A DNA stretch of 48,586 bases from Bryobacterales bacterium (GCA_003136215.1 PLDO01000523.1:16708-65293), one strand, 5' to 3'; counted from the stretch's first letter, positions 19,048-24,362 are shown. Notes: a model not told the origin generated them from the sequence alone. Program-made: numbers and translations.

Positions 19048-21993
19048 ATGGAAGACAACAATACACCCCATGAATCTCTCCTGGCAGAACTGCTCGCCGC
19101 GAACGGGCGGGAATACGGTTTCGCGGCGGCGCTGGGCGCGCTGCTGTTACTGAACGTTACCGGCGTGTTCCGCTTCATCCTGGGTCTGGACACCGCGATT
19201 CTGGTCACCGTGCTGGCCGGGTACAAGACGTTTTACAACACCATCTCCGGGCTGCTGGAGAAGACCATCTCGGCGGACCTGGCGCTGTGCATCGCGGCGA
19301 TCGCGGCGCTTTCTGTGGGCGAGTACGCGGCCGCGGCCGAAACCATGTTTATCGTGATGGTGGGGGAGACGCTGGAATCGTTCGCCGCCGGCCGCACCGA
19401 AGCGGCCATCCAGCGATTCGTGGCGCGCTTGCCGCGCACCGCGCGGCGCGTGGCGGACGGCCGCGAGGAAATGGTGGACGCCGCGTCGCTCGTGCCCGGT
19501 GAGTGGATCGTGGTGAAAGCCGGCGAACGCATTGCCGCCGACGGCTTGATCGAGCAGGGAGCTTCGACTATCGACGAGAGCTCGATCACGGGCGAGTCTC
19601 TGCCGCAATACAAACGGACCGGCGACGAGGTCTTCTCGGGCACCTTGAACGGCAACGGCCTGTTACGCATCTGTGTGACTCGCGCCGGCGGCGAGACCAC
19701 GCTGGCCCGCGTCGTGGAACTGGTGAAGGAGGCCAGGGAAAGGCGCGCGCCGGTGGAGCGTTTGGCCGATCGCTACGCCAGGTACTTCCTGCCCGCGCTG
19801 CTGCTCGCCGGCGCCCTCACCTGGTATTTCACGCGCGACTGGCTGCGCACCGTGGCGGTGCTCGTCGTCGCCTGCCCGTGCGCGCTGATTCTAGCCACGC
19901 CGACGGCGATGGTCGCCGCCATCGGCGGTCTCGCGCGCCGCGGTATTTTGGTGCGCGGCGGCGGCGTCCTGCAGAACGCCGCCAAGGTGGATGCGGCCGT
20001 GTTCGACAAAACCGGCACGGTCACCGAGGGACATTTCGAGATCGCCAAAGTGATTCCGCTTGGCCGGAGCGAGGACGAAGTTCTGGCTCTGGCGGCGGCG
20101 TGCGAACGAAGTAGCGATCACGCGTTGGCACGCGTGATCGTGAACGAGGCCAGGCGGCGCGGACTGGCGCTTGCCGAGTCCGCCGACGCCCGCGCGATTC
20201 CTGGTCGAGGGGTTGAGTGCTGCCTGAACGGAAAGCTCGTCCGCACCGGCAGCGCTGCGTATGTGGTGGAACAGGTGAGCGGGAACGTGGCGCTGGTGCA
20301 GGCCGAAGCCGATCACCTCGGCGCCACGGCGGTGCTGGTGTCGGAGGATGGGCAACTGGCGGGCGCCATCCTGCTGCGCGACCGCGTCCGCGAGGGCGTT
20401 CGCGAAGCGGTCCGCGGCCTACGTTCCATGGGGATCGCCTACCAGGCGATGCTCACGGGCGACCGGCGCGGTCCGGCGGAAGCCATGGCGCGCGAGATCG
20501 GCATCGATCGCGTGGAGGCTGAACTGCTGCCCCAGCAGAAGCTGGAGCGCGTGCGCCAGCTGGCGTCGCAAGGTCGCACCGTGGCGATGGTGGGCGACGG
20601 CATCAACGACGCGGCTGCGCTGGCCGCGGCCAGCGTGGGCATCGCGGTGGCCGGCGCGAGCGACATCACGGCCGAGGCCGCCGGGGTGGTCTACCTGCCA
20701 CACTCGCTGGAGAAACTGCCACAATTGTTCGTGGTCAGCCGGCGTGCGGTCGAGACCGCGTGGCTCAATATCGTGCTGTTCGCCGGGGCGCTGAATCTGC
20801 TGGCCGTGCTGGCCTGCGCCACCGGCAAACTGGGACCGATGGGCGCCGCGCTGACGCACCAGCTTTCCTCGTTCTGCGTGATGATGAATTCCCTGCGGCT
20901 GCTGAGAGTGGAGGGCGGGCACGGGTGGTGGAGCCGCCCCCGCGCGGTCCTCGGCAGGTTGGGCGAGATCGACGGGGGAGCACGAGTCCGAGCTGCGCTC
21001 GGATGGACAAGGCGGAGCCTTATCCCACTGGCCGGAGCGTTGTTGCTCCTCAATGGATTCTACGCGCTGGGACCAGACGAGGAAGGCGTCATCGAGCGCT
21101 TCGGAAGAAAGATCGCGCCCTTCAGCATCCCCGGTCTGCACTACAAGCTGCCATGGCCCATCGAGCGGCTGACGCGCATCGCGCCGCGCCGCGTGAGGGT
21201 GGTGGAGATCGGGTTCCGTTCGAACGCCGGGGCGGCCTACACGGAGCCCTCGGCGTACGAGTGGAACGTGCAGCATCGCGGCGGGAGGTTTGAGAGCCGG
21301 CCGGAGGAATCGTCCGCGCTCACCGGGGACCAGAACATGATCGAGCTGAATGCCAGCGTGCACTACGACGTGCCCCACGCGGACGCCTTTCTCTTCCGCC
21401 AACTGGATGGCGCCGCCACGGTGCGCGCGGCGGCCGAATCGGTGATTCACGGGATTGCTTCCACCACACCGCTGGACGCGCTGCTGACCACGGGCCGTGA
21501 GGCGATCGAGGCTCGGGCCCAGGCCGAATTGCAGCGGCGCCTGGACCGCTACGAGACCGGCGTGCGCGTAATCCGTGTCAAGTTGGAGGACGTGCATCCT
21601 TCCAGCGATGTGGTGGATGCGTTCCGCGATGTCTCCGCGGCGTTCGAAGAAAAGAATCGCGCCATCAACCAGGCGCAGGGATACCGCGCCGAGCAGATCG
21701 CGCTGGCGCGGGGGAGCGCGCGCGCGTTGGCCGAGGGCGCGCGGGCATATGCGCTGGCACGCGTCAACCGGTCCAACGGCGACGCCGGCAGGTTCGCATC
21801 GCGGGAGCAGGCGTACCGCACCGCGCCGGGGGTAACGGAGACACGGCTCTATCTGGAAGCCATGGAGCAGGTTCTGCCGGGCAAGAAGAAGCTGATCGTG
21901 GATTCCAGTAAAGGGCGAAGACACCTGCTGCTGCTGGAAGACGGTGTGGAGATTGCGCCGCCGGGTGCGGCCATCACTGGGGCGAAGGAGTAG
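19048..21993 (+). CDS. P1B-type (CPC) P-type ATPase fused in frame to a C-terminal HflK-like SPFH/band-7 domain
   Basis: GGGAGGGG lies upstream of the ATG. ATPase motifs are ITGES, ACPCALILATP, DKTGTVTEG, MLTGD and VGDGINDAAALAAA, ending at NSLRLLR (~aa 625). There is no HMA domain. After a linker and a TM segment (SLIPLAGALLLLNGFYAL) comes a full HflK-like domain: GVIERFGRK, AFRDVSAAFEEKNRAINQAQGY, TETRLYLEAMEQVL. The frame is uninterrupted. Confidence 0.85.
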   Translation: MEDNNTPHESLLAELLAANGREYGFAAALGALLLLNVTGVFRFILGLDTAILVTVLAGYKTFYNTISGLLEKTISADLALCIAAIAALSVGEYAAAAETMFIVMVGETLESFAAGRTEAAIQRFVARLPRTARRVADGREEMVDAASLVPGEWIVVKAGERIAADGLIEQGASTIDESSITGESLPQYKRTGDEVFSGTLNGNGLLRICVTRAGGETTLARVVELVKEARERRAPVERLADRYARYFLPALLLAGALTWYFTRDWLRTVAVLVVACPCALILATPTAMVAAIGGLARRGILVRGGGVLQNAAKVDAAVFDKTGTVTEGHFEIAKVIPLGRSEDEVLALAAACERSSDHALARVIVNEARRRGLALAESADARAIPGRGVECCLNGKLVRTGSAAYVVEQVSGNVALVQAEADHLGATAVLVSEDGQLAGAILLRDRVREGVREAVRGLRSMGIAYQAMLTGDRRGPAEAMAREIGIDRVEAELLPQQKLERVRQLASQGRTVAMVGDGINDAAALAAASVGIAVAGASDITAEAAGVVYLPHSLEKLPQLFVVSRRAVETAWLNIVLFAGALNLLAVLACATGKLGPMGAALTHQLSSFCVMMNSLRLLRVEGGHGWWSRPRAVLGRLGEIDGGARVRAALGWTRRSLIPLAGALLLLNGFYALGPDEEGVIERFGRKIAPFSIPGLHYKLPWPIERLTRIAPRRVRVVEIGFRSNAGAAYTEPSAYEWNVQHRGGRFESRPEESSALTGDQNMIELNASVHYDVPHADAFLFRQLDGAATVRAAAESVIHGIASTTPLDALLTTGREAIEARAQAELQRRLDRYETGVRVIRVKLEDVHPSSDVVDAFRDVSAAFEEKNRAINQAQGYRAEQIALARGSARALAEGARAYALARVNRSNGDAGRFASREQAYRTAPGVTETRLYLEAMEQVLPGKKKLIVDSSKGRRHLLLLEDGVEIAPPGAAITGAKE
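20988..21028 (+). repeat. Copy 2 of the 41-nt double-hairpin repeat, inside the ATPase-SPFH ORF
   Basis: CCGAGCTGCGCTCGGATGGACAAGGCGGAGCCTTATCCCAC, 39/41 identical to copy 3. It is translated as (R)AALGWTRRSLIP at aa ~647-661, exactly between the pump and SPFH parts. Confidence 0.85.
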
Positions 21994-21999
21994 AAGACG

Positions 22000-23879: not shown

Positions 23880-24362
23880 ATGAAACGGAAAATGCAGGCA
23901 CGCGCATTGGCGGTGGCCGCGCTCGCGGCGCTGTTGGGACTTGGAGTCGCGCGTAAGGCTGGTTGGATCGGGCCGGCGGTCACGCCCGCCGGCACCGAGG
24001 ATGCGGTTTCCGCGGCCATCTATGCCACCATCGATGCGGCGCGGGCAGGAGACGCCAGCCGCTATCTGGCCGGCTATACGGGGCCGATGCGGGTCGCCCT
24101 CCAACGGTCGCTGGACGATGGCGGCGCTGCCGCGTTCGCCCGCTACTTGCGAAGCTTGGATGCCGGAGTGAAGGGCCTCGCGGTTTGGGTAGAAAGCGGC
24201 GCCGGGCGGGAAGCGAAGGCGCGGGTAGAGTATGTTTACCAGGAGCGGAATGAAGTGCAGGTGCTGCACCTGGAGAAGGACACGGGCATCTGGCGAATCG
24301 CGCGAACCGAGGGCGATCAAGCTGTCAAGGCGGCGATCCCGTACGGAACGCCGATCCGGTAG
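23880..24362 (+). CDS. Small membrane-anchored/secreted protein, unknown function
   Basis: The ATG is the nucleotide right after the hflK-like TAG. Signal/anchor sequence MKRKMQARALAVAALAALLGLGVA. 160 aa with no motif I recognise. Confidence 0.65.
   Translation: MKRKMQARALAVAALAALLGLGVARKAGWIGPAVTPAGTEDAVSAAIYATIDAARAGDASRYLAGYTGPMRVALQRSLDDGGAAAFARYLRSLDAGVKGLAVWVESGAGREAKARVEYVYQERNEVQVLHLEKDTGIWRIARTEGDQAVKAAIPYGTPIR

Follow-up and report, generated by a model that had tools for sequence, protein, structure and literature searches.

HflK and HflC of E. coli alternate in a 24-mer. Outside bacteria, the stomatin-family proteins MEC-2 and podocin act on channels or transporters. The HflK/HflC assembly is known as a cage around FtsH (7vhp, 7wi3) and a stomatin cap sits on gap junctions (PMC12588285); what bacterial SPFH rings do besides caging FtsH is an open question. 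In P. aeruginosa PAO1, the genes PA2439-PA2434 form one transcription unit that encodes an HflK-family protein, HflC, an HflC-family protein and the P1B ATPase HmtA (PMC4542158, PMC8531726, PMC11761036, PMC9431628). HmtA, the one studied P1B pump with three SPFH genes next to it, is described as importing metal and as being induced when Zn is scarce (PMC4542158, PMC10393844), and a physical link between pump and SPFH proteins is not proposed in PMC4542158, PMC8531726, PMC10393844, PMC11761036 or PMC9431628. In M. tuberculosis, the PacL-CtpC/CtpG/CtpV "effluxosomes" hold P1B pumps in membrane platforms, with single-pass scaffolds encoded beside them (PMC13460109). We found no description of a pump-HflK fusion cassette in the literature searched, in agreement with a preliminary description of the present locus, which knew of no pump-SPFH fusion. 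Its further statement, that it knew of no SPFH cage dedicated to a transporter, is too strong outside bacteria because eukaryotic SPFH proteins act on channels.

The DNA analysed here (the window) is a stretch of 48,586 nucleotides from a Bryobacterales bacterium (GCA_003136215.1 PLDO01000523.1:16708-65293). The features considered are as follows.

14107..17127, + strand: P0308, candidate client or associate of the cassette (neighbourhood comparison)
19048..21993, + strand: pump-HflK fusion gene, a single ORF of 981 aa (ORF calling)
19048..20925, + strand: P1B-type ATPase part of the fusion, aa 1-626 (motifs, Pfam, NCBIfam, AF2)
20926..21015, + strand: tether from the last TM helix of the pump to the TM helix of HflK, aa 627-656 (AF2, alignments)
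20986..21030, + strand: REP-like dispersed 45-nt repeat, in frame (own-genome matches)
21016..21993, + strand: K1, the HflK part of the fusion, aa 657-981 (TIGR01933, 7vhp match, AF2)
22000..22890, + strand: HflC of the cassette (P0002), 296 aa (ORF calling)
22887..23879, + strand: K2, a second, unfused HflK (P0003), 330 aa (ORF calling)
23880..24362, + strand: S, a membrane-anchored NTF2-like protein (P0004), 160 aa (ORF calling)

The uninterrupted 981-codon ORF first reported for this locus is real, and the ORF coordinates bear out the tight coupling expected of a four-gene operon. The HflC gene follows the fusion gene after 6 nt, the HflC stop and K2 start share an ATGA overlap, and the S gene begins on the base right after the K2 stop. 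In three metatranscriptomes, contigs from RNA libraries, which may contain DNA, together account for most of the operon. Pieces of these contigs span the pump-HflK/HflC and HflC/K2 boundaries, although a single transcript cannot be proven from contigs. Upstream of the operon within the window, neither a metal-regulator gene nor an obvious operator was seen.

The pump part has eight predicted TM helices. Every P-type ATPase signature listed earlier was found in the translation (TGES, ACPCALILATP, DKTGT, TGD and GDGINDAAAL), with CPC at residues 276-278, DKTGT at 320-324 and GDGIND at 516-521. Profile searches, as had been suggested, matched Pfam E1-E2_ATPase (128-298), Hydrolase (314-528) and Band_7 (675-878) on the one ORF, and NCBIfam ATPase-IB_hvy (TIGR01525) matched residues 77-618 at 540 bits (cut-off 346). 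DKTGT, TGES, GDGxND, the TM4 CPC and the TIGR01525 score identify the pump as P1B-type. It has no HMA domain in the Pfam search, consistent with the metal-binding domain having been called absent, and its N-terminus is not His-rich. The site residues are N583 in TM5 and H604-Q605 in TM6. Of 27 diverse fusions, 26 retain C276, P277 and C278, and in an alignment of 41 such fusions H604 and Q605 never vary. The selectivity residues had been described as atypical, and this is correct, with HQxxS conserved among the fusions. SDHAL, found in place of SEHPL, is a local variant of a family consensus SEHxLA.

P1B-1 pumps are marked by YN in TM5 and MxxSS in TM6, P1B-2 pumps by a TM5 Lys and DxG in TM6, and P1B-4 pumps by SPC in TM4 and HEGxT in TM6. 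The P1B-6 signature is SCA in TM4 (CPC in CtpC) followed by N-X18-H-N-X-(S/T) across TM5-TM6 (PMC13460109). Set against the P1B-1 to P1B-7 subgroups, the pump has the core P1B signatures and CPC in TM4, but its N ... HQxxS in TM5/TM6 fits no defined subgroup. Assignment to P1B-1 (Cu+/Ag+; CopA) was rejected: of the YN pair the pump retains Asn but not Tyr, and the invariant His604 occupies the place of LpCopA Met717 (alignment to 3rfu). The other P1B pump of this genome has the classical Cu+ motifs YN and MxxSS. P1B-2 (Zn2+/Cd2+/Pb2+; ZntA) was rejected on the lack of a TM6 Asp and of a conserved TM5 Lys in 27 fusions, and P1B-4 (Co2+/Zn2+/Cd2+) on the TM4 motif, which is CPC and not SPC, with a TM6 HQxxS that is similar but unequal. 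Compared with P1B-6/CtpC by motif alone, the pump reads N-X20-H-Q-L-S-S, with a different spacing and Gln for Asn. In form, its signature appears nearest to those of P1B-4 (HEGxT) and the P1B-6-like CtpC (HNxS/T, PMC13460109). The nearest solved structures are AfCopA (343 bits), LpCopA (307 bits) and a P1B-4 pump (307 bits; 7qbz, aligned to residues 5-621 with the eight-helix layout); ZntA (4umv) scored 297 bits, no better than the Cu pumps.

The remainder of the fusion was earlier read as a complete HflK band-7 part with its own TM helix. A TIGR01933 match upholds this, as does a helix ahead of the SPFH domain, placed at 657-675 by hydropathy and at 643-668 in the AF2 model. In that model the TM helix of K1 leads into the SPFH domain, which is followed by a long coiled-coil helix (854-942) and then the C-terminal tail. 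K1 and its paralogue K2 both score as HflK equivalogs with TIGR01933 (190.6 bits over residues 671-962 and 207.8 bits, respectively; cut-off 159.4), and HflC, whose N-terminal TM helix lies at residues 8-29, scores as an HflC equivalog with TIGR01932 (212.9 bits; cut-off 134.4). E. coli HflK (7vhp_E) was matched by K1 at 120 bits and by K2, over its full length, at 143 bits; HflC matched E. coli HflC (7vhp_G) at 149 bits. K1 has a specific loop at about 733-744, in which E738, W739 and H743 are conserved; in K2 this loop is shorter, and the alignment to E. coli HflK lacks it. K2 was found in every cassette examined. In a tree from a quick search, whose backbone among the K1 groups is weak, K2 clusters with canonical HflK and apart from K1; the cassette HflCs of all three transporter types described below form one clade (SH-aLRT 99), apart from E. 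coli and Tistrella HflC. A genome search detected no HflK and no HflC outside the operon; the SPFH pair found some 2 kb away from ftsH, on contig C664, is a different one. The canonical two-gene hflK-hflC unit (typically hfq-hflX-hflK-hflC in Proteobacteria) was rejected as a description of this locus: there are three SPFH genes, the first fused to a transporter.

The tether joining the two parts is basic, varies among relatives in sequence and length (about 30-75 aa), and is predicted to be disordered (AF2 pLDDT <50, residues 623-653). The 45-nt repeat corresponds exactly to codons 647-661 (VRAALGWTRRSLIPL), running from the last residues of the tether into the first ones of the HflK TM helix. 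At least 46 matches (45 besides the window copy) were found in the genome on both strands at 88-100% identity, counted from 40 scored of 247 first-look candidates. The repeat unit is sharply bounded and often occurs in inverted pairs. Short-read contigs of independent runs end at the repeat, so the window's own join cannot be re-verified from unitigs. In the alignment, the repeat peptide is present in the close relatives P0007-P0018 and absent from P0006 and P0019-P0021; relatives without it are still fused. The single frame is retained in hundreds of independent assemblies and so is not due to chance. The fusion is also found in single-contig genomes, and K1 has no start of its own. It is therefore neither an assembly artefact nor confined to this genome.

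Searches of Acidobacteriota, proposed at the outset, recovered both the fusion and the synteny, and both extend to other phyla. About 30 of 100 genera of this Acidobacteriota family carry the fusion in one frame at 60-71% identity, all other P-type matches in the family reaching at most 44%. A further 21 of 400 other Acidobacteriota genomes have it, with open frames of 1010-1100 aa except for one interrupted by TGA; the full cassette was present in all four of these that were inspected. Beyond this family, the four-gene cassette is present in four more families of Acidobacteriota and in Armatimonadota, Planctomycetota, Elusimicrobiota and Sumerlaeota. Of 80 Bryobacterales loci, nearly all keep the order pump-K1, HflC, K2, S, which is shared by Armatimonadota. 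The concern that pump and SPFH genes might be neighbours in this genome only is thereby removed. Of the other concern raised, that the fusion might be common and already characterised, the first half is true of databases, but the literature searched offered no characterisation. Co-inheritance within the family is all-or-none: HflK (E<=1e-30) occurs in 33 of 101 genomes, exactly those with the fusion, always as two matches about 2 kb apart, one of which lies in a frame of about 1000 aa wherever the contig holds the whole gene. FtsH, on the other hand, is present in 95 of the 101 and is never adjacent to the cassette. The restriction of HflK to genomes with the fusion (33 of 33), together with the separate HflC clade, agrees with the "private" SPFH system originally envisaged.

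The pump-HflK fusion is one of three transporter-HflK architectures. The triad of fused HflK, HflC and HflK2 also carries a CDF transporter in place of the ATPase, or an SO_0444-type Cu/Zn efflux permease (NF033936, 352 and 328 bits; cut-off 300). Among the cassettes, 6 of 82 HflCs and about 8 of 83 K2s bear a His-rich cytoplasmic N-terminal tail, as do several pumps; the proteins of the window itself have no such tail. To judge solely by motifs and companion architectures, the substrate is most likely a borderline divalent metal of the Zn2+ type, Cu also being possible, which the pump would export from the cytoplasm.

S has an N-terminal TM anchor (2-27), a linker and an alpha+beta domain. 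Its AF2 model (pLDDT 87.9) has the NTF2-like fold, a cone with three helices and a curved sheet, and the best Foldseek matches were NTF2, SgcJ and ketosteroid-isomerase-like chains (E 7e-5 to 1e-3); no Pfam or NCBIfam family was matched at the curated cut-off. In a 30-sequence alignment P154-Y155-G156 at the C-terminus is invariant, T157 and P158 are nearly so, and no Cys or His is conserved. S accompanies ATPase-type cassettes, including those of Armatimonadota, and was not found at the four CDF or SO_0444 loci. Upstream lies P0308, a single-copy gene in this genome, whose product has a signal anchor, a propeller-like region and a DUF3604/PHP-type metallohydrolase C-terminus (DFHRHTE). A homologue adjoins the cassette in 27-29 of 84 loci and is directly upstream and co-directional in 11 of the 84, Armatimonadota included, with a gap of -52 to +89 nt. 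This suggests that P0308 may be a client or associate of the cassette.

On balance, we lean towards a dedicated HflK/HflC-type SPFH ring to which metal exporters are tethered; the metal is probably divalent and of the Zn type. The cassette would build its own ring in which some HflK protomers bear an exporter: K1 would carry the pump on its cytoplasmic N-terminus through the flexible tether of about 30 residues, K2 would carry none, and both would be expected to alternate with HflC. Several P1B pumps could thus be held at the transmembrane palisade of the ring, in a delimited membrane patch under the periplasmic vault, and K2 might set the number of pumps per ring. In some lineages, the His-rich tails of HflC, K2 or the pump may gather metal at the entry side, and S would be an ATPase-specific accessory. 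The purpose might be a clustered efflux platform, or metal delivery to exported metalloenzymes such as the DUF3604/PHP neighbour; HmtA, as a reported importer induced by Zn starvation, argues against simple detoxification.

Three other readings bear on this proposal. Pump and SPFH protein could be functionally uncoupled, as an assembly join at the linker repeat or a neutral fusion of two neighbours. In its favour is the high-copy repeat exactly at the junction, where contigs of independent runs break. Against it, the fusion occurs in relatives without the repeat and in single-contig genomes, persists to 34-40% identity and across phyla, leaves K1 without its own start, and is paralleled by the same fusion in two other transporter families; we give this reading almost no credence. 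A more substantial case can be made for K1, HflC and K2 being ordinary HflK/C proteins that cage FtsH, so that the fusion sets the pump beside the protease. The pump could then undergo regulated turnover or quality control, or FtsH could come under metal-dependent control. All three pass the equivalog cut-offs, can be aligned to their E. coli counterparts across SPFH2, the coiled coil and the C-terminal region, and are the only HflK and HflC of a genome that has FtsH; the P. aeruginosa homologues are treated as FtsH modulators (PMC9431628). Against this, two thirds of the family genomes have FtsH without any HflK, the cassette never adjoins ftsH, hflX or hfq, which is the canonical context in Ralstonia and E. 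coli, and its HflC clade is separate from canonical HflC. The triad is moreover tied to three different metal exporters, and it is the other SPFH pair that lies near ftsH. We consider FtsH coupling unlikely.

The pump could also resemble HmtA in taking Zn or Cu from the periplasm under scarcity, with the periplasmic SPFH vault and S holding or concentrating metal at its outer mouth. The P. aeruginosa operon offers the same set of parts as separate genes. It binds Zur, its expression is up 5-14 fold in a znuA mutant, and its proteins become more abundant when Zn is depleted (PMC4542158, PMC8531726, PMC11761036). Cells expressing HmtA contain more Zn and Cu (Lewinson 2009, as cited in PMC10393844), and K1 has its conserved periplasmic loop with Glu, Trp and His. 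However, the two other transporters joined to this triad, CDF and SO_0444, belong to efflux families, the His-rich tails lie on the cytoplasmic side of the type-II anchored HflC and K2, and the pump is a putative rather than an established orthologue of HmtA. Other P1B pumps act in efflux, and import by HmtA is described as needing confirmation (PMC10393844). Import is thus a distinctly improbable reading, and the exporter-tethering ring remains the one that we prefer.

More tentatively, and as something possible rather than probable, exporter-tethered HflK/HflC vaults may be widespread, undescribed nano-compartments, in which the tethered P1B ATPase, CDF or SO_0444 exporters release metal into a closed periplasmic lumen, a chamber for metalation or sequestration that would serve exported metalloenzymes (e.g. 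the co-located DUF3604/PHP protein), the unfused hmtA-PA2437-2439 proteins acting alike. To go by the sequences, the client appears to be written into the polypeptide three separate times, each time from a different metal exporter family; comparative data could hardly make a stronger case that a ring of the HflK/C type is able to serve transporters as a dedicated scaffold. A fused client cannot fall off, so the fusion is a defined, purifiable object for structures of SPFH rings with clients. The proposal also offers a specific idea of what the Zur-regulated HflK/C-like genes next to hmtA, so far unexplained, may do, and a P1B pump group is defined with the new site signature CPC / N / HQxxS.

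With the E. coli HflK/HflC cage, the cassette proteins share family membership above cut-offs and the arrangement of TM anchor, SPFH domain, coiled-coil helix and C-terminal tail, and a heteromeric ring is therefore expected. They differ in having three SPFH genes rather than two, one HflK being fused to a transporter, in the extra conserved loop in the membrane-proximal SPFH part of K1, in the separate HflC clade without hfq-hflX context, and in a presence that does not track FtsH. By parts list, the closest known case would be the unfused, Zur-regulated hmtA-PA2437-2439 operon of P. aeruginosa, where a P1B ATPase and three SPFH genes also stand together and are induced by Zn depletion (PMC4542158); its genes are separate, however, and HmtA is reported to import. 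The eukaryotic stomatin family likewise offers SPFH oligomers that serve a membrane transport protein and not a protease, but the association is non-covalent, involves another SPFH subfamily, and concerns channels rather than primary pumps. In the mycobacterial PacL system, one scaffold carries a metal-binding tail of His and Asp (DLHDHDH), comparable to the His-rich tails of the cassettes, and CtpC, with CPC and N-X18-H-N-X-(S/T), resembles the N-X20-H-Q-X-S-S of the pump (PMC13460109). PacL is a DUF1490 protein and not SPFH, is unfused, and binds the pump's metal-binding domain, which the window pump lacks (PMC13460109). Nevertheless, the parallel with this "effluxosome" suggests that scaffold clustering of metal pumps may be general.

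Four co-directional genes make up the transporter cassette. The preliminary description had proposed one 981-codon frame with P-type ATPase signatures, an HflK end and no metal-binding domain, followed by HflC, a second HflK and a 160-aa gene, and ORF calls, translation, Pfam and NCBIfam agree with this.

Genes of the cassette (window positions)
19048-21993, + strand: pump-HflK fusion, 981 aa (ORF call); its HflK part is called K1
22000-22890, + strand: HflC, 296 aa, 6-nt gap after the fusion gene; TIGR-type HflC match of 212.9 bits (NCBIfam)
22887-23879, + strand: K2, the second, unfused HflK, 330 aa, ATGA overlap with HflC; HflK match of 207.8 bits (NCBIfam)
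23880-24362, + strand: S, a membrane-anchored protein of 160 aa, starting directly after the K2 stop; no curated NCBIfam family

The translated fusion contains TGES, ACPCALILATP, DKTGT, TGD and GDGINDAAAL. Pfam placed E1-E2_ATPase at residues 128-298, Hydrolase at 314-528 and Band_7 at 675-878, and detected no HMA domain in the fusion protein. NCBIfam assigned residues 77-618 to a heavy-metal P1B model at 540 bits and residues 671-962 to the HflK equivalog at 190.6 bits (cut-off 159.4). On either side lie unrelated genes, for a GH5/TIG protein (upstream side) and a URO-D-like protein (downstream side), and the cassette therefore extends over 19048-24362 as originally delimited. No metal-sensor gene adjoins it in the window, the promoter scan found no sigma-70-like site, the terminator-like matches all lay inside genes and were discarded, and an Rfam search of 18800-21200 returned a single sRNA match, below threshold. 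Upstream of the DUF3604 gene (P0308, below), window 9813-13576 encodes a histidine kinase of Reg_prop/Y_Y_Y type and a response regulator of LuxR type.

A protein search with the HflK part as query, limited to 539-1717 aa, gave 892 matches. The best 120 of these all contained PF00702 (P-type ATPase Hydrolase) and PF01145, with 66-93% identity in the HflK part; the full-length relatives among them (~960-1016 aa) also contained PF00122, and a dozen shorter entries look like fragments. When one genome per genus was sampled for 100 genera of the same family, the full-length fusion was found in ~30 of the 100 genera at 60-71% identity, with three more cut by contig ends, and all other P-type ATPase matches were at most 44% identical. 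Among 400 genomes across the phylum, the junction was present in 21 further genomes from five genera of four other families. Their frames were open over 1010-1100 aa, with one exception interrupted by TGA. Many of these carriers are single-contig genomes, which may be long-read MAGs, and the cassette was present in all four that were fetched. When 50%-identity cluster representatives were searched exhaustively, fused forms appeared down to 34-40% identity; named members are from Abditibacteriales (Armatimonadota), Planctomycetota, Elusimicrobiota and Ca. Sumerlaeota. This divergence and spread over several phyla indicate that the single reading frame is ancient and widespread. The locus search, which used a narrow alignment, gave Bryobacterales loci only, and the taxonomic breadth comes from the other protein searches. 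Seven loci (L037, L061, L070, L085, L095, L097, L100) have a pump part split by frameshifts; five of them (L061, L070, L095, L097, L100) come from MAGs labelled 'MFD', and the splits are probably assembly errors and not split genes. Two stand-alone top matches (P0135, P0151) lay on short contigs and were uninformative, and the candidate ORF L012:1070-2371 was in the wrong frame.

The junction itself carries a sharply bounded 45-nt dispersed repeat (window 20986-21030), which lies in frame over exactly codons 647-661 and encodes 15 residues that run from the end of the tether (aa 627-656) into the first part of the HflK TM helix. The repeat has 46 matches in its own genome (45 besides the window copy), from 40 scored of 247 candidates, and the copies (e.g. 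L120-L135) lie on both strands, often as inverted pairs, so the repeat is REP-like. Contigs from public peat runs break at the repeat, where summed depth is 1000-4000 in peat metagenomes, and the window's own join is thus not confirmable from unitigs. Close relatives with the same inserted peptide, inherited by a subclade, and relatives with a different linker are all fused, and one RNA-library contig spans the repeat site via a relative's linker. Summed depth was likewise very high in every run over the intergenic stretch 18939-19013, upstream of the pump. Some contigs run straight from there into the 45-nt repeat, so this stretch may belong to that repeat's family or to a companion one.

The junction stretch was present in peat metagenomes of many studies and in six RNA libraries. 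In three metatranscriptomes, contigs account for most of the operon and span the pump-HflK/HflC and HflC/K2 boundaries; such contigs cannot show one transcript, and DNA carry-over is possible. Parts of the operon uncovered by RNA contigs in single runs are no sign of silence.

P0308, a large exported protein, is encoded at window 14107-17127 by a gene with one copy in its genome; a signal anchor and a propeller-like region precede its metallohydrolase end of DUF3604/PHP type. Of 84 loci, 27-29 have a homologue next to the cassette, a count that overstates independence since the loci are related. In 11 loci, including one from Armatimonadota, it is directly upstream and co-directional (gap -52 to +89 nt); the cross-phylum neighbour is the notable case. 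Genes of this type upstream of the cassette include L102:3224-5971 and those at L040, L045, L046, L049, L052, L056, L073, L074 and L097. This neighbourhood makes P0308 a possible client of the cassette.

The ATPase is one of three transporter types fused to HflK. The best 150 cluster representatives comprised ~57 ATPase fusions (whole or fragmentary), ~30 Cation_efflux (CDF) + Band_7 proteins of ~575-610 aa and five ArsP_1 + Band_7 proteins.

Other transporter-HflK fusions
P0159, P0170, P0172, P0202 (loci L104, L107) and L108:6266-9911: CDF-HflK fusions, with HflC and a second HflK downstream
P0210, P0227, P0258, P0260 (L105:4946-9140): SO_0444 (ArsP_1)-HflK fusions, with HflC and a second HflK downstream

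By its equivalog cut-off, the ArsP_1-HflK group belongs to the SO_0444 Cu/Zn efflux family. MamB, FieF and MntE come closest to the CDF parts, which lack the usual CDF cytoplasmic domain. In four loci of these two types, HflC and then the second HflK follow without S. The CDF version at L108, with proteins WP_072608301-303, is on conjugative plasmid NZ_CP018172.1 of Aquibium oceanicum B7, a cultured alphaproteobacterium, in a metal-homeostasis island where it is flanked by an Nramp gene, a two-component system and an HMA-type P1B pump. At L105, the fusion has an ArsR/SmtB-type regulator upstream. The apparently separate CDF and HflK genes of L107 overlap by 53 nt on a long-read contig, probably a frameshift, and were rejected as a split form. 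In an SPFH tree of 108 rows, the cassette HflCs of all three types grouped in a single clade (SH-aLRT 99) that excludes E. coli and Tistrella HflC, and K2 grouped with canonical HflK (support 95). K1 domains fell outside the K2/canonical HflK clade and for the most part clustered according to transporter, apart from a few mixed pairs. By this pattern, the triad is older than any single fusion, and exchange or fusion of the transporter happened more than once; branch support is weak at the deep K1 nodes.

An AF2 model of the whole fusion had a mean pLDDT of 78.8, with the pump part predicted well and residues 623-653 of the tether below 50. After the tether come a helix (643-668), the SPFH domain, a very long helix that covers 854-925 and resumes at 927-942, and a tail of low confidence, the layout of E. 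coli HflK in 7vhp. The pump aligns with an eight-helix P1B-4 structure from residue 5, so its C-terminus should be cytoplasmic and the following helix would take the SPFH part to the periplasm, the normal topology of HflK, an expectation drawn from what is established for the two families. K1 has a conserved membrane-proximal loop, EPxAYEWNxQH (W739 invariant, E738 and H743 near-invariant). K2 has a shorter version of this loop, and the alignment with E. coli HflK lacks it. S combines a TM anchor with an NTF2-like domain; its C-terminal PYG is invariant, the next Thr and Pro nearly so, and its alignment contains no conserved Cys or His. A complex prediction of the pump part with S scored 0.01 and gave no answer, neither supporting nor opposing binding.

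Selectivity residues had been described as atypical, and this holds across diverse fusions. Among 27-41 of them, TM4 is CPC except for a single CSC, one Asn is retained in TM5, and the TM6 sequence is HQxxSLxVxxNSLRLL, whose His and Gln are invariant; none of the P1B-1, P1B-2 and P1B-4 motifs is matched. Compared with LpCopA, the Asn corresponds to N689, the Tyr is lost and His replaces Met717. The signature is similar but not identical to the P1B-6/CtpC motif, N-X18-HNxS/T (PMC13460109). Several fused pumps have His-rich N-termini, and long His/Asp/Glu-rich tails precede the TM anchor in 6 of 82 cassette HflCs and ~8 of 83 K2s; none occurs on the window's own cassette proteins.

His-rich tails ahead of the TM anchor
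L054, L064, L066, L079, L083, L086 and L113:2518-3501: HflC
L040, L056, L057, L088, L091, L094, L101: K2

At L113 both the pump (3611-6712) and HflC carry such tails in one genome. If the usual HflK/C topology holds, the HflC and K2 tails are cytoplasmic.

We lean towards a model in which K1, HflC and K2 would build a dedicated SPFH ring as a scaffold for metal export. Several exporters would be tethered at its transmembrane palisade, in a number set by K2, and in some lineages the ring would also be a metal-gathering collar. The most novel possibility, which we think rather unlikely, places the pumps within the vault, which would then be a chamber for metalation or sequestration. The order pump-K1, HflC, K2, S is kept in nearly all sufficiently long loci among 80 Bryobacterales loci and on one Armatimonadota contig, so neither synteny nor SPFH-pump co-location is confined to this genome; that pump and HflK lack functional coupling is scarcely credible. 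An HmtA-like import role has the P. aeruginosa operon as its precedent. The genome's other P1B pump is of the classical Cu+ type. Taken with the CDF and Cu/Zn-efflux companion types, it favours a Zn-type divalent metal, or possibly Cu, as the exported ion; we consider import quite improbable.

A role coupled to FtsH is unlikely, if less so than import. The SPFH genes of the hmtA operon, where discussed in the literature, are treated as FtsH modulators, and databases label the fusion proteins 'Cu+-exporting ATPase' or 'FtsH protease activity modulator HflK'. FtsH occurs in 95 of 101 family genomes, never adjoining the cassette. HflK (E<=1e-30) occurs in 33, exactly the fusion carriers, and in none of the other 68; each carrier has two matches ~2 kb apart, one in a frame of ~1000 aa (if the gene is complete on its contig) and the other in one of ~330-350 aa. 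The window's own genome, a 93% complete MAG, has no HflK or HflC outside the operon. Its further Band_7 genes include a pair ~2 kb from ftsH on contig C664, which may be the organism's FtsH-associated SPFH pair.

Band_7 gene pair on C664
6197-7683, - strand: Band_7 gene, not HflK/HflC by NCBIfam
9717-10997, + strand: Band_7 gene, not HflK/HflC by NCBIfam

Two plasmid matches were rejected as cassette relatives: that on a Ralstonia megaplasmid proved a canonical hfq-hflX-hflKC locus and that from Tistrella an ordinary hflKC pair.

The component proteins are members of known families. New features are the covalent joining of transporter and HflK, an SPFH unit of three genes, the FtsH-independent distribution of this unit and the pump site signature. 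Full-text literature searches on SPFH/HflK with metal transporters or Zur found no description of a transporter-HflK fusion, in line with the preliminary description, which knew of none. The nearest published object, compared by its published description, is the P. aeruginosa hmtA-PA2437-2439 operon, which is unfused and Zur-bound (PMC4542158, PMC8531726), and the nearest concept is the PacL-Ctp effluxosome.
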